Below, piece by piece: positions 171 through 36,728 of a stretch of 64,000 nt of DNA. The DNA is from a virus. The position numbers and the translations under genes are program-made. The notes beneath the pieces are model-generated. The model was not told where the DNA came from. It ran no database searches and saw only the letters and a program-made list of their open reading frames with translations. Location of the stretch: IMG/VR virus record IMGVR_UViG_3300001765_000033, positions 1 to 64,000 of that record, one strand, 5' to 3'. Position 1 is the first letter of the stretch; the number at the start of each line of letters is the position of its first letter.

Positions 171-2987
171 ATGCTAGGTTTTTACCCATTAACGTCAAGA
201 CCCTTATCAGGGACACCATTAATACAATATGAATTATCGTTAGATTCTTCTAGTTTTGCCGTTTCTGGTGCCAATGCAACCTTAGTAAAATCAAAAACAC
301 TGAATCTGGCAGCAGATTCTTTTGTCGTTTCTGGTGCTGCATCTTCTTTATACCAAGCAAAAACAGTTTCGCTCGATTCTGCTACATTCTCTGAAACTGG
401 ATCATCGGCGACATTAGCTAAGTCTACGATTGTTGATTTAAATTCTGCAGTATTCTCAGAAACTGGATCGGCAGCAACTTTAACAAGGCAGAAATATTTA
501 AATTCTGCTTCTGATTCATTTGTTATATCTGGCAATTCTGCCACATTAATAAAAGACGCAAACATCAATTTAAACTCCAGTTCGTTTATTGAAACTGGAT
601 CATCTGCAACTTTAACCAAGCAATATTATGTAAACGGAGAATCTGCCACATTTTCTGAAACTGGATCATTAGCCAATTTAATCAAAACTACAATTGTTAA
701 TTTAAATTCATCCAGTTTTACATACTCAGGATCAGCAGCAACTTTAACCAGACAGAAATATTTAAATCTAGGTGTTGATTCATTCTCAGAAACTGGATCA
801 TCTGCAACCCTAATAAAATATTCCACAGTAAATCTAAATTCTGCTGCATTTACTTACTCTGGATCATTAGCGACATTAACTAGGCAATATCCATTAAATG
901 CTGCTTCTGCATCGTTTGTAGAATCTGGTTCAGTATCTTACCTAACAGTACAGAAATATTTAAATCTAGGATCAAACTCATTCGCAGTTTCTGGTGCTGT
1001 TGGGTGGTTATTAAAAGCATATTATCTTAATCTTGATTCTGGCACATTTTCATTAACTGGAAATTCTGTCACTCAGACTGCAGCAAGGCAAATAAACCTA
1101 GCATCGACTGCCTATTCAGAAACTGGAAATTCAGCGACAATAGGATATCAAAGGAATTTTAATTCTCAGTCTTCAAATTTTACATTAACAGGACAGTCTG
1201 CTAGTTTCATTTTAACTAAGGAAATACAAGGAAATCCTGCCATATTTGTATTGGCAGGATTTCCTGCGACATTATTAAAAACTACTCCAAGTGCGTATGA
1301 ATCTGCTCAGTTTGACATTGAAGGGTATTCTTGTGCTCTTACTAAGCAGTCATTACTAAAATCAGATTCTACTTCTTATTCTGAAACAGGCCAGCCAGCT
1401 AATTTACTTAAAGCAAAATTAATACAAAGCGATTCAGCGACAGTTAGTATTGTTGGATATCAAACGAATTTCAATAAGCAATCATTACTAACCTTAGCCT
1501 CAACTGCTTATTCAGAGACAGGACAGCCAGTTAGCTTAATTGCAACTAGGCAAATGAACTGCAGTTCTGCCTCATTTATATTAAATGGACCGCCAGCAGC
1601 ATTATTAAAGGCTATACCTAATTCATATGATTCTGCCGCATTTGATATTGTTGGATATGACGCAACTCTTACTAAGATATCGCTATTAACCTTAGCATCA
1701 ACTGCTTATTCAGAAACCGGAAATACTGCAAGTTTATATCATAGTAAGGTAATTCAATCTAATTCTGAAGCATACTCATTAACCGGATATTCAGCATTAA
1801 TATGTAAAGCCACAATATCTAGTTTTGATTCAGATTCATTTTCATTAACAGGATCAAATACATATAATTATAAATCATATTATCTGAATCTTGGTAGTGG
1901 TAGTTACTCAGTATCAGGACAGCAAGCTAAATTCGATTTAGTATCAAAATTAAATTCTGCTTCTTATTCAGTAACAGGCAATTTAATTTATGCGTCTATA
2001 TCATCAAATCTTAATCAATGGAATATATCTGTTGATGGACAAAATGCTGAGTTAATAAAATCATATCTAAGATCAAACGATTCTGCTGCGTATTCTGTTT
2101 CTGGATTATCGGCATCCTTAATCAAGCAGAAAATATTAAACTTAGCCTCAACTGCTTATACTGAAACTGGAAATGCTGCTTGGTTATGTAAAGGATATGT
2201 TTTAAATTCTGCTGCTGGAAATATATTAATTTCTGGTGCTGATGCAGAGTTAATTACTCCAGTAAAATTTACCATCGATGCAGGCTCATTTGATGTAATT
2301 GGAGCACCGACCAACCTCTGCAAACATACAGTATTAAGCTTAGATTCTACTGTATTCTCAATATCTCTACGAACTACATCAAAAGATTTGGTTTTTGTTT
2401 GTGAGTCTGCAAGTATATCTGTAGCCGGGGCCAATTTAACAACGCTTCACCATAGATATGTAAGCCTTGAGTCAGGTTTAATAACAACGACCGGATCAGC
2501 GTTTTCTGCCTTTCTATCAAAAGTAATTAACTCTCAAGCAGGACATTTTAATCTAACTGGTAATAATTCTACTGAGTATCGAAATAGGGTATTAAGTGCA
2601 ACACCAGATGCAATTAATCTAACTGGTAATAATTCTACTGATTATCATAATAGAAAATTAAATGCGGAGTCTTCTACAGTTAATGCAACTGGTAATGAAG
2701 CAGAATTTTATAGAAGTTTATATATTGGCTTAGATGCATCCACATATAATATATCTGGATCGACAATATCTAAACACCATATATTCTACTCGACTTTAGA
2801 TTCAAGCACATTTAATATTAATGGACAAGATGTAGATTTATTAAAAGATTATACTAGGGGCGGCGAGTTTAATGTATCAGGTAATAATATAGAGTGTTTA
2901 TTGAAGCTTAATATATTTGAGCCAAATTATGATTATATGATTTATTATAGAAGCAAGAAATCTGATGTTGTATTCGATTTCGTCTAA
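171..2987 (+). CDS. Ser/Thr-rich repeat virion fibre/scaffold protein
   Basis: 938 aa of roughly 21-22-aa repeats (LxLxSxxFxxTGxxAxLxK); late-type CATAAATA at 117-124; directly precedes neck genes. Confidence 0.6.
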   Translation: MLGFYPLTSRPLSGTPLIQYELSLDSSSFAVSGANATLVKSKTLNLAADSFVVSGAASSLYQAKTVSLDSATFSETGSSATLAKSTIVDLNSAVFSETGSAATLTRQKYLNSASDSFVISGNSATLIKDANINLNSSSFIETGSSATLTKQYYVNGESATFSETGSLANLIKTTIVNLNSSSFTYSGSAATLTRQKYLNLGVDSFSETGSSATLIKYSTVNLNSAAFTYSGSLATLTRQYPLNAASASFVESGSVSYLTVQKYLNLGSNSFAVSGAVGWLLKAYYLNLDSGTFSLTGNSVTQTAARQINLASTAYSETGNSATIGYQRNFNSQSSNFTLTGQSASFILTKEIQGNPAIFVLAGFPATLLKTTPSAYESAQFDIEGYSCALTKQSLLKSDSTSYSETGQPANLLKAKLIQSDSATVSIVGYQTNFNKQSLLTLASTAYSETGQPVSLIATRQMNCSSASFILNGPPAALLKAIPNSYDSAAFDIVGYDATLTKISLLTLASTAYSETGNTASLYHSKVIQSNSEAYSLTGYSALICKATISSFDSDSFSLTGSNTYNYKSYYLNLGSGSYSVSGQQAKFDLVSKLNSASYSVTGNLIYASISSNLNQWNISVDGQNAELIKSYLRSNDSAAYSVSGLSASLIKQKILNLASTAYTETGNAAWLCKGYVLNSAAGNILISGADAELITPVKFTIDAGSFDVIGAPTNLCKHTVLSLDSTVFSISLRTTSKDLVFVCESASISVAGANLTTLHHRYVSLESGLITTTGSAFSAFLSKVINSQAGHFNLTGNNSTEYRNRVLSATPDAINLTGNNSTDYHNRKLNAESSTVNATGNEAEFYRSLYIGLDASTYNISGSTISKHHIFYSTLDSSTFNINGQDVDLLKDYTRGGEFNVSGNNIECLLKLNIFEPNYDYMIYYRSKKSDVVFDFV

Positions 2988-3006
2988 ATATTAAAAAGGA
3001 CACACT

Positions 3007-3936
3007 ATGGACATTCAATCAAGACAAGATTTAGTAGATTACTCATTGCGACAGCTTGGTGGTGGAGTGATCAACATTGAAATTACGCCAGAGCAGCTAG
3101 AGGATGCTGTCACTGATGCTATACAATATTATCAAGAATATCACTATGATGGTATCGAAAGAGATTACATAAAATACCAAGTTAAGCCAACAGCAGTGAC
3201 GGTGTTAGATGCTATTGGGTTTGTTATCGGCGATACAATTACCACTACTGAAGGTGGCAGTGCTAAGATTTATGATATCATTGGTAATATAATCTACACC
3301 CAAAGAAATTACGGAGTAGTATTTAAATCTGGACAAACTATTACTAATGCTCTAGTTTCTACCGATATTGTTTCAGTAAAACTTGAAGCAATGGATTTAG
3401 GATATATCGATTTGCCAGATAATATATTTTCTGTGTTGAGAGTAGTTAATACATCAGGCATTTTGCAGAGTCAGGATATTTTATTCAATATTCAATATCA
3501 GATTATGTCTAATGAAATAAGAAACATAACCGCTGGTTCAGCAAATTATCTATATTCAACCATGAATTATCTAGGGCATCTAGATTTTATTCTAAGAAAA
3601 GAGAAATCATTTAGATTCAATCGAAGAATAAACAAGATATTTTTTGATTCTTCGTGGGAATTGCAAGCAGGCCAATGGTTTGTTTTTGAAGTTTATTTCA
3701 CGCTTGACCCTGAAGTATATCAGGAAGTATATAACGACAGATGGTTAAAGAGATATGTTACAGCCAAAGTGAAAAGATTATGGGGTACGAATCTTAAAAA
3801 ATACAATGGTATGACATTGCCAGGAGGAATCCAATATAATGGTCAGATCACATATGACGAAGCAATGCAAGAGTTAGCAGAATTAGAATTAGAAGCATCT
3901 GGTTCTGGTGTTCCTTTGGGTCTTTTCATTGGATAA
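3007..3936 (+). CDS. gp13: Neck protein gp13
   Basis: LRQLGGGVINIEIT, WLKRYVTAKVKRLWGTNLKKY, LPGG motifs; T4 synteny. Confidence 0.92.
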   Translation: MDIQSRQDLVDYSLRQLGGGVINIEITPEQLEDAVTDAIQYYQEYHYDGIERDYIKYQVKPTAVTVLDAIGFVIGDTITTTEGGSAKIYDIIGNIIYTQRNYGVVFKSGQTITNALVSTDIVSVKLEAMDLGYIDLPDNIFSVLRVVNTSGILQSQDILFNIQYQIMSNEIRNITAGSANYLYSTMNYLGHLDFILRKEKSFRFNRRINKIFFDSSWELQAGQWFVFEVYFTLDPEVYQEVYNDRWLKRYVTAKVKRLWGTNLKKYNGMTLPGGIQYNGQITYDEAMQELAELELEASGSGVPLGLFIG

Positions 3937-3939
3937 ACA

Positions 3940-4683
3940 ATGACAGCATTAATAAACAAATATTTTATAAAAAACTCTCCGCTAGAACAGTCTTTATTTG
4001 AAAAGATAAAGACAGAATCTATCAAGGTGATGGGTAGGACGTATATGTACTTACCTAGAGAAGTTTTTGCTATAAACCAAATTCTAGGTGAAGATGTTTC
4101 ATCTAAGTTTTCTACTGCCATTGAGATTGAAATGTATATGGAAGAGAACACTGGATTCTCAGGCGACAATGAAATGTATGGAAAATTTGGGCTTGAAATT
4201 GCCTCAAGCTATACTCTCGTGGTATCAAAATCAAGATGGGAAAAAGAAGTTATTAAGTCAGAAAACGAATTCATGCTGGTCAAAAATAGACCACAAGAGG
4301 GCGATTTAATATTTGACCCAATGACAAAATTTATTTTTGAGATAAAATTTGTTGATCATGATGCGCCATTCTTTGAAGTAAGCAAGAATTATGTATACAA
4401 ACTATCATGTGAAGCATTCCAATATGCATCAGAATCTTTTGATACTGGCGTAGAAGAGATTGATAGACTCGAAGACCTGAATACAAACGATGTTCTTAAT
4501 AATCAAATTACTCAAGAATCTGGATTCATGATACTCCAAGAAAATGGCGGTACTTTATTACAAGATATGCCAGAAATTCCAGATTTCACCTCTGGTAAAG
4601 ATGGATATGACAAATCTCAAGAGTTTGAAGATGTAATTCCACAATTGGAATTTTCAGTATCTAACCCATTTGCGAGTAGGTAA
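3940..4683 (+). CDS. gp14: Neck protein gp14
   Basis: YLPRE, GED..SKF, KFGLEI, RPQEGDLI, C-terminal NPF. Confidence 0.92.
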   Translation: MTALINKYFIKNSPLEQSLFEKIKTESIKVMGRTYMYLPREVFAINQILGEDVSSKFSTAIEIEMYMEENTGFSGDNEMYGKFGLEIASSYTLVVSKSRWEKEVIKSENEFMLVKNRPQEGDLIFDPMTKFIFEIKFVDHDAPFFEVSKNYVYKLSCEAFQYASESFDTGVEEIDRLEDLNTNDVLNNQITQESGFMILQENGGTLLQDMPEIPDFTSGKDGYDKSQEFEDVIPQLEFSVSNPFASR

Positions 4684-4685
4684 TT

Positions 4686-5441
4686 ATGAGTTTATTTAAA
4701 GATAATGCGTTTTACAATAAATCCATTCAGAAGTTTATTGCCGGTTTTGGCAATGTTTTCGTTGGCATGACAATAACTGAAGAAGATGAAAATTGCAATA
4801 CCACAAAAATCATAAGGGTTCCTATTGCATACGGACCTAAAAATAAATGGTTGTCCAGATTAACCTCTGAACCAGATTTAGAGTCTACCCATGTAAAAAT
4901 GACGATGCCTAGAATTGCATTTGAGGTCACTGATTATAAATTCGACCCGACCAGAAAAATTGGCACTCAAGGTTCATACATTCCTGGGAAAATTGGAGAA
5001 AAATCGACTAAGGTTTTCAATCCTGTTCCTTATGATGTTACAGTAAAAATGTACACAATTGCAAAAGATCAAGAGGATTCTCTTAGGATGCTTGAACAAA
5101 TCTTACCATATTTCTCTCCAATTTTAGAAATAAAAATTCTACAATTTCCAGAACTTGGTATGATGAAATCGATACCAGTTCAGTTAGATAGCGTGTCAGT
5201 GGATGACAATTATGATTCATCAGTACAGACTCTTAGAACAGTGGTGCAAACTTTTAATTTCACAGCAAAATTAGATTTGTTTGGACCTATATTCTCTACA
5301 GACAAGGTTATCAAAAGAACTATTATTGATATTTCTACTAAGAAGTTAACTCAAATTGATGAAACATATACTGCTGAAGTGGTTCCTTTTGATGCTAATA
5401 AAGAAGATGTATATACTATAAAAGAAAATTGGGAATTATAA
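4686..5441 (+). CDS. gp15: Tail sheath stabilizer/completion protein gp15
   Basis: VPIAYGPK, MPRIAFE, PVPYD, EQILPYF. Confidence 0.92.
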   Translation: MSLFKDNAFYNKSIQKFIAGFGNVFVGMTITEEDENCNTTKIIRVPIAYGPKNKWLSRLTSEPDLESTHVKMTMPRIAFEVTDYKFDPTRKIGTQGSYIPGKIGEKSTKVFNPVPYDVTVKMYTIAKDQEDSLRMLEQILPYFSPILEIKILQFPELGMMKSIPVQLDSVSVDDNYDSSVQTLRTVVQTFNFTAKLDLFGPIFSTDKVIKRTIIDISTKKLTQIDETYTAEVVPFDANKEDVYTIKENWEL

Positions 5442-5442
5442 A

Positions 5443-5898
5443 ATGAGCAATTTAGATAATGTTTTTAATGTGGAAGAATCACCTGTTGCAACCTCAATTA
5501 TGATTCCAGAAGGTGAATTAAATCCTCTATCAGACAAAGGCGAAGAGTCTGAATTGGATTCTGCTTATGTTAGAAAAAATCAGATTGAATTTATTGAGAT
5601 AAGCAAAGCAGCTGTCAATACTGCAATGAGGATAGCATCAGAATCAGAGGCACCAAGGGCAATCGAGACTTTAGCCTTGATGCTAAAAACAGCATCTGAA
5701 ATGAATCGCCAATTGGTGCAGCAGCATAAGGATAAGGCAGAGGTTAAACAGATGAAAAGTGGTAAAGGTGTTGCTGCTATTTCTAATGGCGGGACTACAA
5801 ATAACATTATTATGAGTGGATCATTGGCAGATATAACTAGAATGTTGCGGGATGCTGAGAATGCAAAGAACGCGAATAGCATGATTGTTGAAGGGTAA
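5443..5898 (+). CDS. gp16: Terminase small subunit gp16
   Basis: SEAPRAIE and TTNNIIMSGSLADI motifs; position before gp17. Confidence 0.85.
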   Translation: MSNLDNVFNVEESPVATSIMIPEGELNPLSDKGEESELDSAYVRKNQIEFIEISKAAVNTAMRIASESEAPRAIETLALMLKTASEMNRQLVQQHKDKAEVKQMKSGKGVAAISNGGTTNNIIMSGSLADITRMLRDAENAKNANSMIVEG

Positions 5899-5910
5899 AG
5901 GAATTGCATT

Positions 5911-6315
5911 ATGGAATTGGGTGAACTTAACGCAGAATATGAACATATAGCATTTAAAAATAATCCAAATTTAAGACCGTGCGGTATTAAATTTGAATAT
6001 ACTATGGAACAAATGATTGAGATTCAGAAGTGTATGAAAGACCCGATATATTTTATCGAAAATTATTTTAGGGTTATTCATCCAGATAAAGGCTCCGTTC
6101 TGATGAAACTTTATGATTATCAAAAAAAGATGATACTAGCATATCATAATAATAGGAGAGTTGTCGCAATGGCATCTCGCCAACTTGGAAAATGTTGCAC
6201 ACTAAATACTAAAGTTAGTTTAAAAAACAAAAAGACTGGTATAATCTACCAGTTAACTTTAGGAGAATTTTATGAGTGGCAAGTATTTAAAGAATTGTTT
6301 GGTGTGTTCGTGTGA
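5911..6315 (+). CDS. gp17: Terminase large subunit gp17, N-extein (94 aa) fused to 40-aa N-intein
   Basis: NPNL, KDPIYFIENY, LYDYQ and Walker A RQLGK, then CCTLNTKV (intein block A). Confidence 0.9.
   Translation: MELGELNAEYEHIAFKNNPNLRPCGIKFEYTMEQMIEIQKCMKDPIYFIENYFRVIHPDKGSVLMKLYDYQKKMILAYHNNRRVVAMASRQLGKCCTLNTKVSLKNKKTGIIYQLTLGEFYEWQVFKELFGVFV
6193..6312 (+). mobile_element. Split intein N-fragment (40 aa)
   Basis: Cys1 directly after Walker A Lys; stop after 40 residues. Confidence 0.85.
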
Positions 6316-7366
6316 ATTTGAGGCAACACACCTAAATTGCAAGAAATGTATTCCGTGTAAATCTAGACTTTTTTGCAGTGAGTGCGATAAAGAAACTCAT
6401 AAGAGTTTTAGTCACGGAAGAATTAAATGTTTGGAGTGTAGAGTGAATGAAACGCACGAAAAATACACAGAAGAAAATTCATACGAATGGATTGAGTGTA
6501 GATTTTGTGGATATAGAGCAGAAGACTTGGGCGGTCATTTACGAGCAGCACACAATACAAATGCTGATGAATATGGAATATCTAAAAGTCAAAGACAAAG
6601 AGACAGGGTAAAAGGAGAAAACAACCCTGCATACCAGCACGGAGGAAAATTGTCACCTTGGTCTAAAAAATCTTTATATCACACAGAAGAACAAATAGAA
6701 CAAAGTCGAAAATTAGCTAAAGAAAATATGCTAGCTAATCCTGAAAGTGGCCCAAATACGTTAAATGTTGAGTATTACATCGCAAAAGGAATGTCTTTAG
6801 AAGATGCTAAAAAGGCGTTATCTGAACGTCAATCGACATTCTCTTTAGAAAAATGTATTGAGAAACACGGAGAAGTTGAAGGAACAAAAATCTGGCAAGC
6901 AAGACAAGATAAATGGCAAGCGACTTTAGATTTAAAAACGGACGATGAAAAGGCCGAAATTAATTTAAAAAAGATTTGGAAAGGCGGAGAAGTTTCAAAA
7001 GTAGAAACAGAATTTGCAGAAAAATTAAAAGCTAAGGTTGATATAACAAGACAATTTATTATAAGGAACAATATTCACCATTTTGTGTGTGATGTTTTAT
7101 TTGGTAAAAAAATTATCGAATTTAACGGAGATTATTGGCACGCTAACCCTAAAAAATATCAAAAAGACGATTTATTATACAACGGAAAATCTGCTAAATC
7201 CATTTGGAAGAAGGATAAATATAAATTAGATTACTTAAAATCTCTTGGTTATGAAGTGATGACCGTTTGGGAAACCGAATATAAAAAAGATAAAACAGGA
7301 ACCATATCTGAATGCATACTATTTCTGACAGGAGAACACGAAAATTCGTTGACACAATTCATGTAG
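6272..7366 (+). CDS. Free-standing homing endonuclease, Zn ribbons plus Vsr/DUF559-like nuclease
   Basis: Multiple CxxC, KGENNP motif, C-terminal IIEFNGDYWH...GYEVMTVWE. Confidence 0.85.
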   Translation: MSGKYLKNCLVCSCEFEATHLNCKKCIPCKSRLFCSECDKETHKSFSHGRIKCLECRVNETHEKYTEENSYEWIECRFCGYRAEDLGGHLRAAHNTNADEYGISKSQRQRDRVKGENNPAYQHGGKLSPWSKKSLYHTEEQIEQSRKLAKENMLANPESGPNTLNVEYYIAKGMSLEDAKKALSERQSTFSLEKCIEKHGEVEGTKIWQARQDKWQATLDLKTDDEKAEINLKKIWKGGEVSKVETEFAEKLKAKVDITRQFIIRNNIHHFVCDVLFGKKIIEFNGDYWHANPKKYQKDDLLYNGKSAKSIWKKDKYKLDYLKSLGYEVMTVWETEYKKDKTGTISECILFLTGEHENSLTQFM

Positions 7367-7674
7367 ATGATTGGGAGATTGAAACTGAATCTGGGTGGGT
7401 TGATATTGAATATATCAACAAAACGATTCCTTATGAGGTTTATCAATTAAAAACTGATAATTGTTGTCTTGAGTGTGCGGATACTCACATTGTTTTTAGA
7501 GAAGACCATTCAGAAGTTTTTGTTCAAGATTTATTTCCTGATGATGTTATTATAGGCGAAAATGGCTTAGAAAAGGTAATCTCAGTAACAAAAACTGATC
7601 GTTTAGAAAATATGTATGATTTAACCGTTGGTGGTGATCATACTTTTTATGCTGAAGGTTTGTTGCACCATAAT
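7312..7674 (+). mobile_element. Split intein C-fragment (121 aa)
   Basis: Block B-like CADTH, blocks F/G ending His-Asn, Thr at +1. Confidence 0.88.
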
Positions 7675-9042
7675 ACTACTACATCTGCTGCATATATTTT
7701 ATGGTACGGATTATTCAATGATCTAAAAACTTCTGCTGTACTTGCTAACAAACAAGCCACTGCATTTGAAATTATGGATCGTATTAAATTTGGTTATGAA
7801 GAATTGCCACTTTTTTTACAACAAGGAATTAAAACTTGGAATAGAGGCTCTATTGTTTTAGAAAATGGTTCTCAAATTTTCGGCGCTGCCACATCAAAAT
7901 CGGCAATTCGGGGTCGGACAATTTCTGGAATCCTCATGATGGATGAGGGAGCATTTATCCCCAACACTCAAGCTGAAGAATTTTTCACGGCAGTTTTCCC
8001 AACATTATCAGCATCAAAAGAAGCTAAATTTATTTTGACATCAACCCCAAATGGTTTCAATTTTTTCCATAAGATTTGGAGTGATGCTGAAAAAGGCATA
8101 AATGGGTTTTTTCCAATCAGATCGATGTGGTACGAACACCCAGATCGTGATCAAAAATGGTATGAAGAACAAAAAGCTGCATTAGGGCCATTAAAAACAG
8201 CGCAAGAATGCGATTGTAATTTTAATGGCAGTGCGATGCAATTGCTAGCGCCACATACAATGTCATCTCTATCCTACTCAACCCCAATCCAAATATTCAC
8301 AGAAAAATATCAAGGTCTAAAACTTTATACTCTCAGTAAACCAGAAAATCATTATGTCATGACGGTTGACGTATCTCGCGGTAGACATTTAGATGCGTCT
8401 GCATTCTTAATAATCGACGTAACCAAGCAACCATACACCATAGCGGCATCATATTCTAACAATGAAGTTGCTCCATTGATGTATGCCGCTATTATACACA
8501 CGATGGCTAAGCAATATAATGATGCCTATATATTAGTGGAAATTAATGATATCGGTGGTCAGGTCGCAGAGTCATTACATTATGATTTTGAATATGGAAA
8601 TATGTTTTGGTCGAAATCGGGAGAAATTCTAGGTAAAAGGGGCGCAGACCCTTATCCTGGTATTAGGACAACGAAAAAAACAAAAAGAATTGGGTGTGCA
8701 AATTTAAAAGACATGGTTGAAAAGCAAAACTTTTTAATTAATGATTTTCAGCTTATTCGAGAATTATCTACTTTCGTACAATCTACAACTGGATCATATG
8801 AAGCAGATGAAGGATTTCATGATGATATGGTTATGTGTGGAGTATTATTTGCTTGGCTGGCCTCTCAGGTTTGGTTTAAAGATTTAACCGATCAAGATAT
8901 GCGTCAAGAAATGTATGCAAAACAATTAGAAACAATTGAAGAGGAATTGACCCCATTTGGATTTATATCCAATGCAGCAAATGATTTTATAGAAACCCCA
9001 AGGGATATTAATTCAAAAGAAGCCCTTGAGTTTTTCTTTTGA
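7312..9042 (+). CDS. gp17: Terminase large subunit gp17, 121-aa C-intein plus C-extein
   Basis: Intein end MYDLTV...LHHN|TTT, then ANK, Walker B MMDEGAF, STPNG, DVSRG, HDDMVM. Confidence 0.92.
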   Translation: MHTISDRRTRKFVDTIHVDDWEIETESGWVDIEYINKTIPYEVYQLKTDNCCLECADTHIVFREDHSEVFVQDLFPDDVIIGENGLEKVISVTKTDRLENMYDLTVGGDHTFYAEGLLHHNTTTSAAYILWYGLFNDLKTSAVLANKQATAFEIMDRIKFGYEELPLFLQQGIKTWNRGSIVLENGSQIFGAATSKSAIRGRTISGILMMDEGAFIPNTQAEEFFTAVFPTLSASKEAKFILTSTPNGFNFFHKIWSDAEKGINGFFPIRSMWYEHPDRDQKWYEEQKAALGPLKTAQECDCNFNGSAMQLLAPHTMSSLSYSTPIQIFTEKYQGLKLYTLSKPENHYVMTVDVSRGRHLDASAFLIIDVTKQPYTIAASYSNNEVAPLMYAAIIHTMAKQYNDAYILVEINDIGGQVAESLHYDFEYGNMFWSKSGEILGKRGADPYPGIRTTKKTKRIGCANLKDMVEKQNFLINDFQLIRELSTFVQSTTGSYEADEGFHDDMVMCGVLFAWLASQVWFKDLTDQDMRQEMYAKQLETIEEELTPFGFISNAANDFIETPRDINSKEALEFFF

Positions 9043-9110
9043 CTAAATATAACATACGCGAGTAGTTTCGTTGTGTTTTACAAATTTTGAATGATTATTA
9101 AGGAGAGTTT

Positions 9111-11465
9111 ATGTTATCACCAGGCGTAGAGATTAAAGAAAAAGACCTAACACTGATTGTACCAAATGTTTCTAGTACCACAGGTGGTATTGCTGGCAGA
9201 TTTACCAATGGGCCTATTGGGGTTCCTTATTTGTTATCTAGCGAGGCTGAACTAGCTGATGTTTTTGGTCCACCAAATGATATTAATTACCCAGAGTGGT
9301 TTACTGCTGCTGAATTTTTGAAATATTCTGGTGCTATGTATGTGGTTCGTGCTACTGCTACCGACACTCAGACAGCTACCCAAAAAATTCCTACTGTTGG
9401 AAAAGAAATCGTCCTTAAATCTCAAACAGATTTTGAAGATAAGCTATCCATGAGCACGGAATTTGCTTTTGGCACATATGGATTGTGGGCATCAAGACTG
9501 CCAGGGGCTATCGGTAATTCTATCGCAGTTGTTGCTGTTGATGCTGGCAATTGGGTCAATTTTTCATCGTATGCAAGTAATAATTTTAGCAAATATGGTA
9601 CTTCATTAGCTTCTCTATTTTCTCAATCGCCTAAAATGTCTGGATGGCTACAATCACAGATGCCAGTAGGCTCTGGCGCAGTATTTTCAGTAGTTACTAC
9701 TGGAGGTTCAGTTTCTGCTGTTAACGTAACTAAGGGCGGTTCTGGCTATTCGACAGGCACGTATTTAGAATTCAATGGTGCTGGTTCAGGTGCTGATTTT
9801 ACTCCAACAGTTGAAAATGGTGTTATCACTAAAATTAACATTAAGAGTGGTGGTGCTGGTTATACTGTTGCTCCAACCGTAGTAATTTCGGCTCCAGCTG
9901 ATATTGGAACTGGTCGCACCGCAACCGCAACCGCAACTCTTGGTTCTGGTGATACTGCTACTAAAGTAGTAGCAATAACCATTGTAGATGGCGGCAAAAA
10001 CTATACTGCCAGCGACAACATCGCCTTTACTATTACTGGTTCAAACTCAGAAATTGCTGTACTATTTGTGCCAAAACTAAATGATAGCGAGAGTTCTCAA
10101 GTAAATGGTATCACAGACGGTGTTATTGTGGGCATGACAAAAGTTTCTGGTGGTATCAATTATGGCACTGCTTCAGTAACTGCAACCGCATTTAACGCTT
10201 CGCTAAACGATGAACTTCATGTGATGGTTATCGATACTACTGGAAAAATTTCTGGCACTGTAAATAAAGTTTTGGAAGTATATGAAGGTCTATCAAAAGT
10301 ATCAGATGCATCAAATGCATTTGGCACTGATAATTATTACCAAACCGTTATTAACAACAACTCAAAGTATATCTACTGGCTAAAAAGCCCAACTGATGGT
10401 GCTCTAGAATATGATCTAACTGTAGATGCAAATAAACTAGCATGGGACGTTAGAGGCGCTGAAGTAGCAAATGGCACTAAGTCATTCAAACTTTTCAAGT
10501 CTACATTCTCAAAGCCAGCTTCATTAGTTTCTGGAACCGATGGTACTACGGTAACTGATGGTCAAGTTAAAGAGGGATATTCTTTGCTAGCCAATAACGA
10601 TCAATATGAAATTGCGTGTTTCCCATGTGCTGCGTTTAGCCCAGATGTTATTAAACACGTCATCGAAAATGTAGCTTATGCTCGCAAAGATGCTATGGCT
10701 TTCGTGTCTCCATATAATGTGTCTACTTCAAATCTAGCCACATCAAAATTTGGTTTGCTAAAGACCGCAAATGATATTGTAAATTTCAAGAATATCGAAA
10801 TTGCAGTTTCAGATCAATATGCACAATATGCAGTAATGGATTCTGGTTGGAAGTATATGTTTGACAAATACAACAACAAATATCGTTGGGTTCCTCTAAA
10901 TGGAGATATTGCTGGCGTTGTTGCTCGTTTGGAATTAATTTCTGAGCCTTGGTTCAGCCCAGGTGGTTATGATCGCGGTGGTATCAAGAATGTTCTAAAA
11001 CTTTCATGGAATCCTACTCAAATTGAACGTGATGTAATCTATCCAAAGGGCATTAATCCAGTGGTTGTGTTGCCAGCTGGTGGTGGTGTTATGTTGTATG
11101 GTGATCGTACCATGACAAGCAAACCAAGTGCATTTGATCGTATCAATGTCCGTCGCTTGTTTAATATCTTAGAGAAATCAATTAGTACAATGGCTAAATA
11201 CAAGCTCTTTGAAATTAATGATACATTCACACGTAGCGATTTCAAGAGTAAAGTAGACAGTTATCTGCGTGACGTTCAAGGTCGTCGTGGTATCACAGAT
11301 TATATGGTTCGTTGCGATGAAACAAATAATACTTCTGATGTTATTGACCGTAATGAATTTAGAGCAGCCGTGCTTTGTAAACCAGCCCGGAGCATTAATT
11401 TTATTACTCTATCTTTTGTAGCAGTTTCTACTGGTGTAGCATTTAGCACGGTTGTTGGAGCTTAA
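9111..11465 (+). CDS. gp18: Tail sheath protein gp18
   Basis: SPGVEIKEKDLT, PWFSPGG, FDRINVRRLF, KPARSINFI. Confidence 0.96.
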   Translation: MLSPGVEIKEKDLTLIVPNVSSTTGGIAGRFTNGPIGVPYLLSSEAELADVFGPPNDINYPEWFTAAEFLKYSGAMYVVRATATDTQTATQKIPTVGKEIVLKSQTDFEDKLSMSTEFAFGTYGLWASRLPGAIGNSIAVVAVDAGNWVNFSSYASNNFSKYGTSLASLFSQSPKMSGWLQSQMPVGSGAVFSVVTTGGSVSAVNVTKGGSGYSTGTYLEFNGAGSGADFTPTVENGVITKINIKSGGAGYTVAPTVVISAPADIGTGRTATATATLGSGDTATKVVAITIVDGGKNYTASDNIAFTITGSNSEIAVLFVPKLNDSESSQVNGITDGVIVGMTKVSGGINYGTASVTATAFNASLNDELHVMVIDTTGKISGTVNKVLEVYEGLSKVSDASNAFGTDNYYQTVINNNSKYIYWLKSPTDGALEYDLTVDANKLAWDVRGAEVANGTKSFKLFKSTFSKPASLVSGTDGTTVTDGQVKEGYSLLANNDQYEIACFPCAAFSPDVIKHVIENVAYARKDAMAFVSPYNVSTSNLATSKFGLLKTANDIVNFKNIEIAVSDQYAQYAVMDSGWKYMFDKYNNKYRWVPLNGDIAGVVARLELISEPWFSPGGYDRGGIKNVLKLSWNPTQIERDVIYPKGINPVVVLPAGGGVMLYGDRTMTSKPSAFDRINVRRLFNILEKSISTMAKYKLFEINDTFTRSDFKSKVDSYLRDVQGRRGITDYMVRCDETNNTSDVIDRNEFRAAVLCKPARSINFITLSFVAVSTGVAFSTVVGA

Positions 11466-29993: not shown

Positions 29994-30013
29994 GTTTGTT
30001 CCTAGAAAAATTT

Positions 30014-30874
30014 TCAGAAAAATGAAATGATGACAAGCCCGTTACCACCGTTACCACCGTTACCACCAGTGACTCCAGCACCGCCACCGCCACCGCCACA
30101 GCACTGACCACCGTTGCCACCGTTGCCTGCTGTGGTGCCTGTGGCCCATGCTGTGCCACCGCCTGATCCGGCTGAGTAGTAAGGGAATGGAGTCCAGAGG
30201 GTTGATCCAGCATTGCCGCTTGTCATTGCGCCGCCGCCATAATTAATCGGTAGCATTCCAGCGAAAGTTGCCGACACAAGCCCGCCACTAAAATCTGAAG
30301 TAGATGCGGCAGCGAGTGATCCTCCACCGCCACCGCCTTGGCCGATTGCTGCATTGCCAGCAGTACCGCCTTGGCCAGTCACAGCACCCGCTGCACCGCC
30401 TGCACCGCCGTTGGATAAGTTTGTGGCAATCGTTTGGGCTATGTTTACGTTGTTTGTAGTTCCAGAAGCGCCAACAGACCCGGCAGCAGCAGACCCGGCA
30501 CCACCAGCACCCCCTCCGGTTGTGTTCTGAATAATGGAAATGGTCGTAGGGATTTCTATTCGGGAGAGTCCACCAGCAGTTGCAGCAGCACCACCGGATA
30601 TTCCTCCAGTGCCACCCGCACCAACAATAACGTACATCGCAGAACTGAGCATTGCTAATGGAACTATGTTGATGGCCCTACCACCGCCACCGCCACCGCC
30701 ACCACCACCTTTAACAACACCCTGTGCAGCAGTGAACCCAGCACCACCGCCACCACCAGCACCTTGGCAATAGACCCATGCGCCCTGTGCCCAACGTGGG
30801 ATGTCAATGGTATAATTACCGGGAGAATTGAAGATCGTTTTATCTGATCCTACTATATGTGATAAATCGTACAT
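30014..30874 (-). CDS. Glycine-rich fibre/adhesin paralog 3
   Basis: MYDLSH...YTIDIPRWA; GGGGG tracts; TAATG start overlap. Confidence 0.65.
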   Translation of the reverse strand: MYDLSHIVGSDKTIFNSPGNYTIDIPRWAQGAWVYCQGAGGGGGAGFTAAQGVVKGGGGGGGGGGRAINIVPLAMLSSAMYVIVGAGGTGGISGGAAATAGGLSRIEIPTTISIIQNTTGGGAGGAGSAAAGSVGASGTTNNVNIAQTIATNLSNGGAGGAAGAVTGQGGTAGNAAIGQGGGGGGSLAAASTSDFSGGLVSATFAGMLPINYGGGAMTSGNAGSTLWTPFPYYSAGSGGGTAWATGTTAGNGGNGGQCCGGGGGGAGVTGGNGGNGGNGLVIISFF

Positions 30875-31767
30875 TACCAAAATCCTACAATAATTAGACC
30901 ATCACCACCACGACCACCTGAACCACCTATGAGTCCAGCGCCACCGCCACCGCCACCGCATCCAAATGCTCCATTGCCTCCATTGCCTCCATTGCCGTTG
31001 AATGATGTGCCACCGCCAGACCCAGCGAGAGAGAGTGGGAATGGGGTAAAAATGGATGATCCGTTCCCACCCGGTTCAGCAGCACCAGCAACACCGAAAG
31101 GTAGTGAAGGTATTAACGTGGGAAATGGAGAATTGCTCTGACCACCAGCAAAGTTAGACCCAGCACTAGCACCAAGTGAGCCACCACCAGCACCACCAGC
31201 GGTGACGCCTGTTGCGTTAGACGTACCATTCATACCACCGATAGCACCACCAGCACCGCCAGCAACAGCATTAAAACTATTTGCGTATAGGATTGTAGGG
31301 ATTGTAGGGGCTGTTGTAGTTCCTGCAGTACCTACTGCACCAGCACCAGCACCACCACCAAAACCACCACCACCAGCGTTTCCAATGCCACAATGTACGA
31401 GAGTTGAACCCCATGTTATATAAGCATGTGTTGCCCAATTAGCCATCGTTCCATTGCCAGCTGTAGCACCATCAGCACCTGTCACACCACCTCTACCGCC
31501 ATCACCAACAAAAAGTTGAAGTGATGCATTTAACAACATATTTGTAGGTAGCATCGACATTATGCGCCCACCACCACCACCACCACCACCTCCACCTTTG
31601 GCATTAACTGAGGTATTAGAACCACCACCACCACCGCCGCCACCCGGCCCAACCATGTAAAGGAAAGCATTCCTAGCCCACCGTGGAATATCGATAGTGT
31701 AAATACCAGCAGCATTAAACACCGTCTGCTGTGTGACTCTACCAACCAAGTATGTGAAGTCGTACAT
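30874..31767 (-). CDS. Glycine-rich fibre/adhesin paralog 2
   Basis: MYDFTY...YTIDIPRWA; ends GGRGGDGLIIVGFW. Confidence 0.65.
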   Translation of the reverse strand: MYDFTYLVGRVTQQTVFNAAGIYTIDIPRWARNAFLYMVGPGGGGGGGGSNTSVNAKGGGGGGGGGGRIMSMLPTNMLLNASLQLFVGDGGRGGVTGADGATAGNGTMANWATHAYITWGSTLVHCGIGNAGGGGFGGGAGAGAVGTAGTTTAPTIPTILYANSFNAVAGGAGGAIGGMNGTSNATGVTAGGAGGGSLGASAGSNFAGGQSNSPFPTLIPSLPFGVAGAAEPGGNGSSIFTPFPLSLAGSGGGTSFNGNGGNGGNGAFGCGGGGGGAGLIGGSGGRGGDGLIIVGFW

Positions 31768-32654
31768 TACCAGAACCCCACGATCACTAAGCCATCACCA
31801 CCACGACCACCAGAGCCTCCGGCGATACCTGCTCCGCCACCACCACCACCACAGCCGAAGCCGCCAGAGCCTCCGTTGCCTGCTGTGCCATCAAAGGATG
31901 TCGCACCACCACTACCAGCGATAGAGAATGGGAATGGTGTCATTACAGATGAACCATTTAGTCCATTTTTAGCAGAGTTGTATCCTCCGCTTAGTGTAGG
32001 TATCAATGCTTGAAACCTGGAGTTACAGTTACCACCAGTGAAGTTGGCACCAGCACTTGCTCCAAGTGATGCTCCACCACCACCACCTGCAGTGATACCA
32101 CCAACATTATTGTTCCCGATACCACCAGCAATCACACCAGCAGACCCACCAGTAGCAGCACTTACATTGGTTGAATACGCGCAGATGTGCAGGGTGGGGG
32201 GCACAGTGATTCCAGCAGAGCCTACATTACCAGCAGCAGCACCACCACCTACCCCACCTCCGCCGTTAGACGCATTACCTAGATTCACTGTTGCCGAACC
32301 CCACACTATTTCAGCCGTACTTAACCCGCCTGCACTTCCATTAGCCGCAGTAGCTCCTGTGGCGCCCGTAGCACCACCGGCACCACCAGCACCTACAGTT
32401 ATTCTCAGCGAAGCATTAAGCAGCATCTTGCACGGCAGCACAGAGAAAATCCTACCGCCACCGCCACCGGCACCGCCCCCACCTTTGGCTGAAGCGAGTA
32501 CGTTTGACCCGCCACCGCCACCGCCACCAGCAGCACCAACCATATAAAGGTTAACCCCGTTCGCCCACCGTGGAATGTCTATAGTGAAACTACCCGCCGC
32601 AGAAAAAACATGCTGCTGAGTAACACGACCCGTTAAATGGGAAAGGTCATACAT
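31767..32654 (-). CDS. Glycine-rich fibre/adhesin paralog 1
   Basis: MYDLSH...FTIDIPRWA; ends GGRGGDGLVIVGFW. Confidence 0.65.
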   Translation of the reverse strand: MYDLSHLTGRVTQQHVFSAAGSFTIDIPRWANGVNLYMVGAAGGGGGGGSNVLASAKGGGGAGGGGGRIFSVLPCKMLLNASLRITVGAGGAGGATGATGATAANGSAGGLSTAEIVWGSATVNLGNASNGGGGVGGGAAAGNVGSAGITVPPTLHICAYSTNVSAATGGSAGVIAGGIGNNNVGGITAGGGGGASLGASAGANFTGGNCNSRFQALIPTLSGGYNSAKNGLNGSSVMTPFPFSIAGSGGATSFDGTAGNGGSGGFGCGGGGGGAGIAGGSGGRGGDGLVIVGFW

Positions 32655-33410
32655 TTAGTATGAACCACCTATACAAGACACCTGCCAACCACTGGTCACA
32701 GTCGCAGACAGCCCAACATAAATGGTATACCCAGGTGGTAAGGCTAAGTTAAGTGGGTAATCGATTTCAGCAGTGGCAGCAGTTGTTGAGGAGGTGACCG
32801 AAGCTAATGTAATCTCACCAAACAGGAATTGGCTGCCTGTCAGCGGATCATCCAGCGTGCCTGTCTCGGGCATTGCAGTTTGCACGAACGTAGTCGTCGC
32901 GCTGCTGAAATAGTATTGGGCTGTGCCTGTTGCAGCACCCACTGTAGTGACATAAACACGATACGACTCAGCACCGGCAATTGAAGGTAGAGTCCAAGTG
33001 ATTGACCCTGTTACACCTGAAGCTACCGACACCGAGGCAGAGTATGTGCCGATGGGTGTTTGGCTATCATCAGGCCCGATACCAACGACTGTGGCGAAAT
33101 AAGCACCAGCAATCATCGTCCCACCGGAGTTTGACCCCACACCGGTGGGTGCTGCAGGTGTGCCTGTGCTGAAGTTTGTGTTTGCCGTACCACGGTTGAT
33201 GTAGATACGTGCCACGGTTGCACCACCCGTACTGCCACGCGCTTTAAACCGCAGACGTTGAACGAATCCACCGTTACTAGCATCAGCAACGAAAACGCAT
33301 TTATTATATGGGCTTACGCCATTGTAATCATTTGCTGCTGTTGTCAGAAGAAAACTCTGACCGATTGCACCAACTTTAGAATAGATCGGCTCGACATTTG
33401 GATTTGCCAT
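32655..33410 (-). CDS. Putative structural protein with internal FN3-like insert
   Basis: PAAPT...W..PSIAGAESYRVY; ends LPPGY...GGSY. Confidence 0.5.
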   Translation of the reverse strand: MANPNVEPIYSKVGAIGQSFLLTTAANDYNGVSPYNKCVFVADASNGGFVQRLRFKARGSTGGATVARIYINRGTANTNFSTGTPAAPTGVGSNSGGTMIAGAYFATVVGIGPDDSQTPIGTYSASVSVASGVTGSITWTLPSIAGAESYRVYVTTVGAATGTAQYYFSSATTTFVQTAMPETGTLDDPLTGSQFLFGEITLASVTSSTTAATAEIDYPLNLALPPGYTIYVGLSATVTSGWQVSCIGGSY

Positions 33411-33428
33411 TATTATTTCCTTTTAATT

Positions 33429-33788
33429 TTAAGGCATTGCATTGCCAATAGCAATTTGGTACATTTGACCAGAGCTATTATACTTATTGATCACATTTGC
33501 TGGTAATGTACAAAATACTTCTTTTACACCAGCAATAAAATCTACTGCAGCATTTGAATTACTACTTTCAAAAACTGCCATTCTTACCAATGTAGTAGAA
33601 TTTGATAGATATCCTGATCCTATTTCCCATTGAGTACCACCTTGAGAAACGATACCATAATAAAAAGTTTCTCCAACAACAAAAGCATTGGAGAAACTTT
33701 GAAATTGAACTACTGGACCAAGTAAAGCAATATCACCAGTTGAAATGCTGGTGGTAGTTTCCTTTACTCTATCATGAACTTTAAACAT
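33429..33788 (-). CDS. Fibre-associated protein (DRVKET type)
   Basis: DRVKETTT...WEIG.G...KEVFCTLPA, a pattern seen in phage fibre proteins. Confidence 0.55.
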   Translation of the reverse strand: MFKVHDRVKETTTSISTGDIALLGPVVQFQSFSNAFVVGETFYYGIVSQGGTQWEIGSGYLSNSTTLVRMAVFESSNSNAAVDFIAGVKEVFCTLPANVINKYNSSGQMYQIAIGNAMP

Positions 33789-34390
33789 TAGCTTAGAGTG
33801 GTAGAGTAAGTTACATTAAGCTGATCACCAGAAGATACAACTTTACCAGCACCAAACAAACCATATGAATACAAAATTGCATTTGCGGTTGCAGTATCAG
33901 AAACTACACCTAAGTTACCTACAGCAGCAGCATTAAGAAGATTCAATGAAACTCCATAAATTGTACCACCAGCACCAGCAATCGTTGCATTAACTGCAGC
34001 AGAAGTTGATTTAACTCCAGAAGCTGAAGCTGAAAATTGTGGAGAACCACGTGTAGCAATGACCGTGTTAGCAATCTCAGTAAATACATGAACTGCATAT
34101 GTGAATGTAGCTAGAGCAGCGGTGTTTGAATTAACGAAACCCATTCTGAAAAACATATTCACTGAAGCAAGAGCACCTGTACCTGCAGAGCCAGCAATCA
34201 TGGTAGTATTCAAAAGGAAATCTTTTCCTTGTGTAGTTACCAGATTATCAAACTCTTCGACCCATTTTAGATTACCTTCTGAGTCTAAGCAAGTGGCAAC
34301 ATAACGACCATGTGCTTCCATTTGATTTGATTGATTGGCACCACGAGTTACTGATGCGGTTACGATATCCGTTGATGTTGATTTTTCCAT
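33788..34390 (-). CDS. Putative fibre subunit
   Basis: GNLKW.E...NLV...GK; ends SGDQLNVTYS. Confidence 0.5.
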   Translation of the reverse strand: MEKSTSTDIVTASVTRGANQSNQMEAHGRYVATCLDSEGNLKWVEEFDNLVTTQGKDFLLNTTMIAGSAGTGALASVNMFFRMGFVNSNTAALATFTYAVHVFTEIANTVIATRGSPQFSASASGVKSTSAAVNATIAGAGGTIYGVSLNLLNAAAVGNLGVVSDTATANAILYSYGLFGAGKVVSSGDQLNVTYSTTLS

Positions 34391-34407
34391 TTTAAATTTC
34401 CTTTTGT

Positions 34408-35469
34408 TTATATATTTATATTTAATGTTATAGACACTGGATTATAAGCAGGGTCAGTAATTGCTGCTCGTTGTCCAGCATCAAGAGCAAATTCGTATGT
34501 AGTATCGGTTGTAGTTAAAATTTGTGTCCAAATACACCCAGGAATAACTGAGCCAGATTGTTTTAAAGATACCGTTAAATTATTTCCGATAGGGCTAGAA
34601 CCTCTGACTTTAAGAACTACGTTTGAGCCTACTGGATATATAAAATGAGGTAAGGCTAATTCTGTAGTTCCTGCTAAGGTAGTACTGATATAATCTGCAT
34701 CCGATGGTGTTGTTGGTTCGTCTACCACCGTACATAAATCTACCGTTGCTGGTATTAATCCTATTGTTGACGAAATTCTGCGTTTATAAGATTGATCGGC
34801 ATTAGCATTATGAGATAATAATCCTGTTGGTCCCTCTACTGCATTTAATTTATATGATGATGTAAGTCTGTAGCTAATAGGGGTGGATGCTACGTCAGTA
34901 AATCCGATTGGCGGTGCTCCCATAGCAGTGCCAGTTTGTCCTTGAAACCATATCGCATAAACTGCATCACCAGCTTTTACGTCTATAGATGGTGTAGAAT
35001 AATCTCCTGCAGGATTGCTAGTTCTATTAGCTATAGCGGATGTTCTTATTGGGCTTGTTAAATTAACATTAGCCCATGCAGTAATTCTTAAAATTCCTAC
35101 CTGAAAGGGTATACTCGATAATACTATTGAGGCTACATCACCTCTAGCCAACCAAGTCGATAAGTTAGAATAAGATTCTCCTACAGCATTTAACAAAGTC
35201 CACCCAGCCGACATTGATGGTTCAGTAGCTATTGGCGCCCCATTGAATACAGATACTTCAGCAATTAAAATATCAGTATCTAATGTCCCAACAGGTTTTA
35301 TTCCTGTTAATCCGTCAATCGTGCCAGTTACTTCTGCATACCCTCTAAACTCAATAGATTTATTTACATTAGCAATCCAAGTACCCGCAGAAATATCTCT
35401 GGATGGCTGAACTACAGATACATCATGTAGTTCAGAAGTTGCACCTTGTAGAAGTACCGAAAACCACAT
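34408..35469 (-). CDS. Structural protein with inserted beta domain, paralog of 29152-29595
   Basis: Shared termini plus an insert of about 200 aa. Confidence 0.55.
   Translation of the reverse strand: MWFSVLLQGATSELHDVSVVQPSRDISAGTWIANVNKSIEFRGYAEVTGTIDGLTGIKPVGTLDTDILIAEVSVFNGAPIATEPSMSAGWTLLNAVGESYSNLSTWLARGDVASIVLSSIPFQVGILRITAWANVNLTSPIRTSAIANRTSNPAGDYSTPSIDVKAGDAVYAIWFQGQTGTAMGAPPIGFTDVASTPISYRLTSSYKLNAVEGPTGLLSHNANADQSYKRRISSTIGLIPATVDLCTVVDEPTTPSDADYISTTLAGTTELALPHFIYPVGSNVVLKVRGSSPIGNNLTVSLKQSGSVIPGCIWTQILTTTDTTYEFALDAGQRAAITDPAYNPVSITLNINI
34413..34420 (-). promoter_or_regulatory. T4-type late promoter TATAAATA
   Basis: Exact consensus upstream of 34390. Confidence 0.65.
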
Positions 35470-36728
35470 TATCCAGCTTTCCAGTAAGAGATTCTAGCGT
35501 AACCATCACCACCTTTTCCACCGACAGCCGAACCGCCTGCACCACCCCCGCCTGATCCATATCCAGTAGCGGCAGCGCCATTTACTCCACCATTTCCGCC
35601 CTTACCACCTTTGCCAAATAATGAAAATGCACCACAACCACCACCACCATAAGAGTTTGTTCCTGTAGTTGAACCTGTGCCACCGCCAGCACCAGTACCC
35701 ATAAAAGCTTGTGCCCATCGATTTCCCTGTGATGCGTTACCCCCATTACTACCAGCAACAGATGCCACAGAATTTGAGCCGCCACCGCCACCACCAGAAG
35801 CACTCCATGTAACACCATCAAATGCTGCAGTAAAAGCAAGCTCGCCGCCAACGCCGCCACCACCACCAATAGCACCAGCAGCGCCAACAGTAGCTTGTAC
35901 GCCACCACTCACGCCACCACTCACGCCACCAGACCCCAATGTTGCAGCACCTGTTACCGGTCCCACTGTTGCCGCCCCATACAGTAGTAAACTTCCATCT
36001 ATTGCAGTTAAGGGTAATAACCCAGTTATAGTAGTATTACCACCAGACCCAGCGAAAGCACCACCACCAGCACCATTAGACCCTACTCCCACAGTTACAG
36101 TTAACGTAGATAATGGATTAGCAGACGCCCTAGCACCGATAATAGACATAGCACTGCCACCTCCACCTCCACCTCCATTATAGATATTACCAGTACCACC
36201 AGACCCACCCCCAGCACCGCCTCCGCAACCGTCTATAGTAAGTTCAGCAACACCCTCTGGCACAATCCAAGACCAAGGACCATTAGGTGATGTAACATCA
36301 GCAACACCATTTGTGACAATTCCTGTACCACGAATAAACTCAACGACATATTGCTTAGGAACCATTGAAGGCCCAACACTGCCTTCTGGTGCTCTGATAG
36401 ACCAAACGATTGATCGGTCAGTGCCTGCAGTTTTTCTAAGAGTTATATCCCATCCAGATAATAATGCAAATGCTGGTATAACATAAAGTGGTTCAGATTG
36501 AACACCGGAAATTGCTATATGTTGAATTACTCTTTGAGTAGCTCCAACCGTAGCTTTTTCTTTGATTAAAATTTCGTATGATTCGGTTGCAGTTAATGTG
36601 CTAAAATCAATGAAGGCTTGGTAGATACCAGAAACTGTGTTACTAGCTAATGTTGTTGATGCACTAACTATACTGAATTCAGTAGACCCTATTGTGGCAG
36701 AGCCACCATGTGTTTGAGTTAATGCCAT
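35469..36728 (-). CDS. Glycine-rich fibre/adhesin with extra N-terminal domain
   Basis: VVEFIRGTG...NGPW.W.VP.GVAE; Gly tracts. Confidence 0.6.
   Translation of the reverse strand: MALTQTHGGSATIGSTEFSIVSASTTLASNTVSGIYQAFIDFSTLTATESYEILIKEKATVGATQRVIQHIAISGVQSEPLYVIPAFALLSGWDITLRKTAGTDRSIVWSIRAPEGSVGPSMVPKQYVVEFIRGTGIVTNGVADVTSPNGPWSWIVPEGVAELTIDGCGGGAGGGSGGTGNIYNGGGGGGGSAMSIIGARASANPLSTLTVTVGVGSNGAGGGAFAGSGGNTTITGLLPLTAIDGSLLLYGAATVGPVTGAATLGSGGVSGGVSGGVQATVGAAGAIGGGGGVGGELAFTAAFDGVTWSASGGGGGGSNSVASVAGSNGGNASQGNRWAQAFMGTGAGGGTGSTTGTNSYGGGGCGAFSLFGKGGKGGNGGVNGAAATGYGSGGGGAGGSAVGGKGGDGYARISYWKAG

Follow-up and report, generated by a model that had tools for sequence, protein, structure and literature searches.

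A predicted split-intein and endonuclease cassette in the Walker A motif of the terminase gene of an uncultured T4-like phage

The fractured terminase gene and its intein

We analysed the gene for the large terminase subunit (TerL) in a window of 64,000 nucleotides (nt), the first 64 kb of IMGVR_UViG_3300001765_000033, a linear IMG/VR record of 94.6 kb that is ~53 % complete by estimate. The gene, terL, lies there as two open reading frames (ORFs) in the same reading frame, 5911..6315 (134 aa) and 7312..9042 (576 aa), with a predicted homing endonuclease gene between them (Table 1). The first ORF encodes 94 residues of the TerL N-terminus up to ASRQLGK, followed by 40 residues, CCTLNTKVSLKNKKTGIIYQLTLGEFYEWQVFKELFGVFV, and a stop codon. 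The first 121 residues encoded by the second ORF end in YAEGLLHHN and continue with TTTSAAYILW into the full TerL ATPase and nuclease. A sequence-only reading of this DNA had proposed that terL is fractured in Walker A by an intein whose N-terminal fragment (IntN) has 40 aa and whose C-terminal fragment (IntC) has 121 aa, and its junctions on the two genes, RQLGK|CCTLN and LHHN|TTT, proved correct to the residue. It had also named what would overturn this, a contiguous in-frame intein disrupted by assembly frameshifts. The terL frame between IntN and IntC, however, holds 43 stop codons, so the locus is not a frameshifted contiguous gene and this candidate is ruled out.

The insertion site was examined by comparison with 80 related IMG/VR loci, of which the four closest (L002-L005, 54-63 % identical in the C-extein) have an uninterrupted terL. 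In these four, N-extein residue 94 joins C-extein residue 1 in one frame. The intein-free junction reads TARQQGKTTVSAAYFVWY in L002 (in a longer stretch, ARQQGKTTVSAAYFVWY) and ARQQGKTSVSAAYFVWF in L004. Since the intein-free relatives join GK to TT, the insert lies exactly between the Walker A Lys and Thr (GK|T), and the boundaries of both intein fragments are thereby fixed as proposed. The alignment of the N-extein covered residues 13-94 of intein-free TerL homologues and ended exactly at GK. The C-extein, which completes Walker A and contains the remaining ATPase and the RNase H-like nuclease, was colinear with intein-free homologues across residues 1-441. On these alignments, the intein boundaries are not a chance match.

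IntN starts with Cys-Cys-Thr-Leu-Asn directly after RQLGK. Its Cys1 was invariant in 23 N-fragments, and its type of ending was common to 22 metagenomic N-fragments. A PDB search with IntN gave no match, and its placement is by alignment to contiguous inteins only: it aligned with the first ~35 residues of those in phages Magnus and Kuja. Klebsiella phage Magnus (intein annotated, 159 aa) and Vibrio phage Kuja carry contiguous inteins at this site, and IntN and IntC together align with these from end to end. The two fragments part within a loop that follows helix α1, varies in length and precedes a conserved RKF motif. As had been anticipated, the split is thus close to the intein N-terminus, and block B, with His59 (CADTH), lies in IntC. 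His59, Asp103 and Asn121 were invariant in 44 IntC homologues. The C-terminal His-Asn is present in the window's IntC and is followed by a Thr+1 nucleophile (LLHHN|T); across 89 loci of the window's family, the +1 residue was Thr in 51, Ser in 38 and never Cys.

The AlphaFold model of IntC had a pLDDT of 86.3, and its listed PDB matches were inteins or intein-like HINT domains. Comparisons with the VidaL, RadA, gp41-1 and Cat inteins gave query-normalised TM-scores of 0.6-0.75. The model covered the chain of CatC (6DSL_B), with a TM-score of 0.77 normalised to CatC. As modelled, IntC is a HINT domain that corresponds in extent to the solved fragment CatC of an atypically split intein. Because the model covers the CatC chain, the break lies at the S2 position described for AceL-TerL and GOS-TerL (PMC13014065).

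The endonuclease ORF shares 44 nt with the first terL ORF and, at 7312-7366, 55 nt with the second. Its ATG falls at the same Tyr-Glu codons in two related loci, L016 (start 3168) and L090 (start 1738), in which the overlap of endonuclease and IntC is 25 nt. In the window, the first 18 codons of IntC overlap the 3' end of the endonuclease gene. Given the start codon inside IntN and these overlaps, the last 13 residues of IntN and the first 18 of IntC are by-products of the endonuclease ORF, read in the other frame. A by-product tail of 13 residues fits the reported shortening of the GOS-TerL IntN from 37 to 27 aa (PMC11766414).

The N-terminal 240 residues of the endonuclease are Cys-rich, with five CxxC pairs and helical repeats, and presumably serve DNA binding. 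The C-terminus carries an EDxHD/Vsr-like nuclease domain (~residues 255-353, coordinates 7034-7330). A single-sequence PDB search with the endonuclease gave no match and the Pfam matches were weak (DUF559, MTES_1575); the relationship was seen by fold search. An AlphaFold model built on 46 homologues (pLDDT 85.7) showed a C-terminal alpha/beta domain, for which the best PDB matches were I-Bth0305I (3R3P, TM-score on target 0.72-0.74) and then E. coli Vsr (1CW0/1VSR). D274, E283, H290 and E334 were invariant in the 46 homologues, and N285, D287 and D315 nearly so. A free-standing EDxHD-type gene between the halves, with this fold match, bears out the fractured-gene layout with a Vsr-like endonuclease that had been predicted.

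Table 1. Features of the terL region in the window
Feature	Coordinates	Strand	Description
Small terminase subunit gene (gp16-like)	5443..5898	+	Pfam DNA_Packaging, E 2e-8; directly upstream of terL
TerL N-extein	5911..6192	+	94 aa; last residues SRQLGK, the first Walker A half; PHROG match to terminase large subunit, E 3e-25
IntN	6193..6315	+	40 aa and stop; Cys1, two strands, helix α1 (LGEFYEW), 13-aa tail
Shine-Dalgarno sequence (AGGAG, 6261-6265) and endonuclease ATG (6272)	6261..6274	+	strong AGGAG; inside IntN codons L-G-E-F-Y-E
Free-standing homing endonuclease gene (predicted)	6272..7366	+	364 aa; frame differs from terL
IntC	7312..7674	+	121 aa; block B (C-A-D-T-H, His59), block F (MYDLTV), block G (LLHHN)
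TerL C-extein	7675..9042	+	455 aa and stop; Thr+1 (TTT); Pfam Terminase_6N, E 1e-11, and Terminase_6C, E 8e-13
Tail sheath ORF	9111..11465		downstream of terL; Pfam Phage_sheath domain matches

The order of the small terminase, large terminase and tail sheath genes is that of T4. The entire record yielded a single terL (one Terminase_6N match), and no near-identical DNA was found among GenBank phages. The host of the split terL is an uncultured T4-like phage.

Relation to known inteins and endonucleases

Loci of this kind were described as "fractured genes" by Dassa et al. in 2009, among them a gp17 terminase from Lake Gatun with a 122-aa IntC and an unusual break point (PMC2677866). Like those genes, the window's terL has a free-standing endonuclease gene between its halves and unbroken homologues elsewhere. 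In both the Lake Gatun locus and the window, the interrupted gene is a gp17-type terminase of a myovirus, the C-terminal part holds all intein motifs except N1 (122 aa there, 121 aa here), and an endonuclease gene separates the halves. The reported overlaps of the endonuclease 3' end with the downstream start are 6-69 bp, and the overlap here is 55 bp. The window differs in presenting a complete locus in a 94.6-kb phage contig, the two being compared by description only. The same kind of locus was thus published in 2009, and the window's locus adds nothing conceptually beyond it.

Contiguous mini-inteins occur at the same GK|T site in TerL of Magnus and other Ackermannviridae. They are homologous to the window's intein (~35 % identity in IntC) and share its Cys1, His-Asn and Thr+1. 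However, they form one polypeptide and have no nuclease gene. Where they have the loop after α1, the window has a stop codon, then an endonuclease gene of 1 kb and then a fresh start codon.

I-Bth0305I, the EDxHD prototype (PMC3239194; PDB 3R3P), resembles the window's endonuclease in its C-terminal Vsr-like nuclease fold, the best PDB match, and in being tied to mobile intervening sequences. Asp, Asn, His and Asp residues also stand at matching spacing (D274, N285, H290 and D315 in the window), and by this spacing the first three probably map onto D196, N208 and H213 of I-Bth0305I. Whereas I-Bth0305I belongs to a group I intron in recA and carries N-terminal NUMOD repeats, the window's enzyme has a free-standing gene, flanked by the intein halves, and its N-terminal region is Cys-rich.

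The sequence-only reading had assigned the intein to the rare, atypically split AceL/GOS-TerL type. The topology of this assignment held: AceL-TerL, GOS-TerL and their consensus, Cat (PDB 6DSL), share with the window a TerL host, the S2 split after α1, and a short IntN with a long IntC that includes block B. The allele did not. The AceL-TerL and GOS-TerL inteins (25/104 and 37/115 aa) have Cys+1 (PMC11766414), as opposed to Thr+1 at Walker A in the window. A single-sequence search with the window's IntC gave no match to CatC (6DSL_B) at E <= 1, and the profile of its family (44 homologues) was no nearer to CatC (2.7e-11) than to gp41-1 (9e-14) or VidaL (1.5e-13) when compared with solved inteins.

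One locus, L160 (IMGVR_UViG_3300001749_000022, 2418-6189), carried inteins at several sites at once. Three atypically split inteins divide its terL into at least four pieces. The first lies at Walker A, with Thr+1, and is accompanied by a chimeric endonuclease with an EDxHD-type N-terminus and a MUG113-type nuclease. The second lies directly before the Walker B strand (RGKS|C...HN|CSLLYIDE) and is Cat-like, with a 27-aa IntN, Cys1 and Cys+1; its neighbour is a NUMOD3-bearing, GIY-YIG-like endonuclease gene. The last ORF ends in the start of the third, at QEFE|C. The best PDB match of the Cys+1 IntC was CatC (6DSL_B, E 7e-9), aligned through SHA-CE. Since the Cys+1 IntC beside Walker B matches CatC and the window's IntC does not, we conclude from these comparisons that AceL/GOS/Cat probably represent an allele beside Walker B, an assignment that rests for AceL and GOS on PDB 6DSL and the published +1 residues, and that the Walker A allele of the window is distinct from it while sharing its break topology. 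No characterised split alleles at the Walker A site were found in the open literature searched.

Occurrence in other phages

The split layout is common in phage metagenomes and not rare, as the sequence-only reading had supposed. Of the best 80 relatives of the endonuclease in IMG/VR, 78 adjoin an IntC homologue, nearly all just upstream of IntC. A search of 1.84 billion cluster representatives with IntC returned 803 proteins at E <= 1e-3. Among the best 150 of these representatives, 131 start with IntC by hand count, which marks them as split C-fragments.

Cultured phages carry the split as well. Delftia phage PhiW-14 (GQ357915.1) and the locus L006 have kept it without the nuclease gene. In PhiW-14, a 155-aa ORF between gp16 and gp17 that is unannotated in GenBank (L085:1982-2449) encodes the N-extein and a 43-aa IntN, and the annotated gp17 begins with IntC. 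L006 is similar, with an ATGA overlap of stop and start codons.

In two other cultured phages the halves are far apart. Vibrio phage vB_VmeM-32 (KU160494.1; L083/L170: 1102-3216 and 79947-80624) has them ~80 kb apart on opposite strands. Its N-fragment is gene 00107, annotated as "hypothetical protein", and adjoins gp15-gp16, and its C-fragment adjoins gp18. In Salicola phage SCTP-2, a jumbo phage (MF360958.1; L082/L172: 256428-257321 and 429395-429718), the halves are ~173 kb apart. These plaque-forming phages need TerL, a strong though indirect argument that trans-splicing works in this Walker A split-intein family.

Both of these phages showed further interruptions. At Walker B, the C-fragment of the T4-like vB_VmeM-32 is interrupted once more, by a contiguous intein (YVDE|C...HN|CAF); neither TerL insert is named as an intein in the GenBank record or the paper of this phage. 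In SCTP-2, the gene that starts with IntC ends in an apparent N-part of a further intein (LLY|CLDGETTVKL), and terL is seemingly in at least three pieces.

A locus with the same layout, L091:1484-4516 (IMGVR_UViG_3300043398_000171), showed a terL frame that is free of stops across the endonuclease gene, giving one ORF of 1010 aa. The conserved endonuclease is read there in the +1 frame (1830..2786). In its codons, T occurred at the third position before codons starting with AA-, AG- or GA- in 0 of 107 cases, against 66 of 210 elsewhere, and the same count gave 27-45 % in seven other loci. L091 looks like a split intein that was re-fused into a cis-splicing precursor by overprinting and kept so by selection at synonymous sites.

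The cassette family is not confined to terminases, as indicated by a carrier gene for a DnaB-like helicase and by similar loci. In L113:1780-4745 (IMGVR_UViG_3300025867_000010), a cassette splits the P-loop (GETNVGK|S) of this helicase (Pfam DnaB_C, E 4e-19). It consists of the same intein and an EDxHD endonuclease, with IntC 50 % and IntN 63 % identical to those of the window. The extein type of L113, HN|S(M/I/L)W, was seen in ~20 further loci.

Proposed mechanism, mobility and alternatives

We consider it highly probable that the window contains a mobile cassette in the Walker A GK|T site, composed of an S2-split class 1 intein and an EDxHD/Vsr-like homing endonuclease gene, whose intein restores intact TerL by trans-splicing. 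The phage would make the N-extein with IntN and the IntC with C-extein as separate proteins of 134 and 576 aa, and the short IntN would fit into IntC, whose HINT fold is almost complete. Protein trans-splicing would then be performed by Cys1, the His of block B, the Asp of block F, the terminal His-Asn of IntC and Thr+1, and the product would be an intact TerL with SRQLGK-TTT, calculated at 549 aa and ~61 kDa and required for DNA packaging. For its translation, the endonuclease would have signals of its own, the AGGAG/ATG within IntN. The most likely targets of its cleavage are terL alleles of co-infecting relatives that lack the intein, and repair would copy the whole cassette (homing).

The identities between relatives differed for intein and extein. 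The nearest protein relative (P0024) showed 95 % identity over IntC residues 19-121 and 83 % over the C-extein (Fisher p 0.001). Compared with one relative of the N-fragment (P0004), IntN was 92 % and the N-extein 70 % identical, and with another (P0003) the order was reversed, IntN being 58 % and the N-extein 85 % identical. Such discordance is the pattern that would be expected from exchange of the cassette between phage lineages.

Several points weigh against the proposed mechanism. Splicing activity, endonuclease activity and the endonuclease target are matters that we infer. In block B, Ala stands three residues ahead of His59, at a position where Thr is usual, and the motif of the family reads A-D-x-H. 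As a nucleophile, Thr+1 is weaker than Cys. With the record incomplete, a second, intact terL could still lie elsewhere in the genome. No counterpart was found of the hairpin or late promoter described by Dassa et al. upstream of endonuclease genes of this type: the T4 late promoter TATAAATA was absent near the cassette, its 7 copies in the window being no more than chance, and RNA hairpins sequestering the endonuclease or IntC start gave no signal (z-scores 0.03 and 0.45). Within the unit, no sigma-70 promoters or terminators stood above shuffled background.

Among the alternatives, the one that survives best is a split intein that works beside an endonuclease that is no longer an active homing enzyme, so that the cassette is fixed and immobile. 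We regard this as unlikely, though well worth keeping in mind. L006 and PhiW-14 lost the nuclease gene and kept the split, and among the nearest relatives the endonuclease is much less conserved (38-44 % identity) than the intein (61-69 %). However, the endonuclease ORF in the window is intact with every family-invariant residue present, and recent exchange is suggested by the discordance between intein and extein identities.

It is very improbable that the intein halves are inactive relics and that the TerL pieces associate non-covalently, as in the intein-less fractured SbcD-like locus of Dassa et al. Fractured genes without inteins do exist (PMC2677866), and the block B without the canonical Thr is compatible with such decay. 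However, the conservation of Cys1, His59, Asp103, His120-Asn121 and Thr/Ser+1 extends over 44-89 homologues, P0024 differs from the window less in the intein than in the extein, and the break sits in the middle of the P-loop. For ATP binding, the P-loop must be one continuous loop.

We give hardly any credence to a joining of the pieces at the RNA or translation level, by a group I intron, translational bypass or a double frameshift. The endonuclease family is likewise known from group I introns (PMC3239194), but such an intron is rejected here, as no Rfam family matched at E <= 1 in 5400-9200. Moreover, the pieces have a stop or start codon of their own, the break is bordered exactly by intein blocks, and no canonical slippery heptamer was seen on reading both overlaps, for which no formal scan was run.

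Finally, the chance that an assembly or sequencing artefact hides a contiguous intein that may include an endonuclease domain in frame is negligible: the contig is a metagenome assembly and both terL pieces share one reading frame, but that frame is accounted for by common descent, since everything between the pieces is coding and indels come in threes, and the artefact is contradicted by the stop codons in the terL frame, by an intervening ORF that encodes a conserved, intact protein in a different frame, and by the recurrence of the layout, both in independent contigs by the dozen and in cultured phages whose halves lie on opposite strands.

For phage biology, the trans-splicing cassette, a selfish element, would impose on another essential late function, DNA packaging, a dependence on post-translational ligation. 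Atypically split natural inteins with short N-fragments are sought as labelling tools. To our knowledge, few of them have been characterised, namely AceL-TerL, GOS-TerL, VidaL and PolB16. The Walker A family, abundant, diverse and present in cultured phages (PhiW-14, vB_VmeM-32 and SCTP-2) with Thr/Ser+1, could provide orthogonal candidates. We suggest tentatively, as a proposition that falls somewhat short of probable, that these loci form a large, biochemically uncharacterised family of S2-split alleles (Cys1, Thr/Ser+1, P-loop GK|T/S), separate from AceL/GOS/Cat, that is accompanied by EDxHD endonucleases and has spread from P-loop to P-loop among unrelated ATPases (TerL and the DnaB-like helicase of L113). 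If so, it would offer new split inteins orthogonal to known ones, with an IntN that could probably be trimmed to ~27-30 aa.

Outside the terL region, positions 30001-38000 of the window had a G+C content of 0.43-0.53, compared with ~0.34 in the remaining window, and a strongly negative GC skew.

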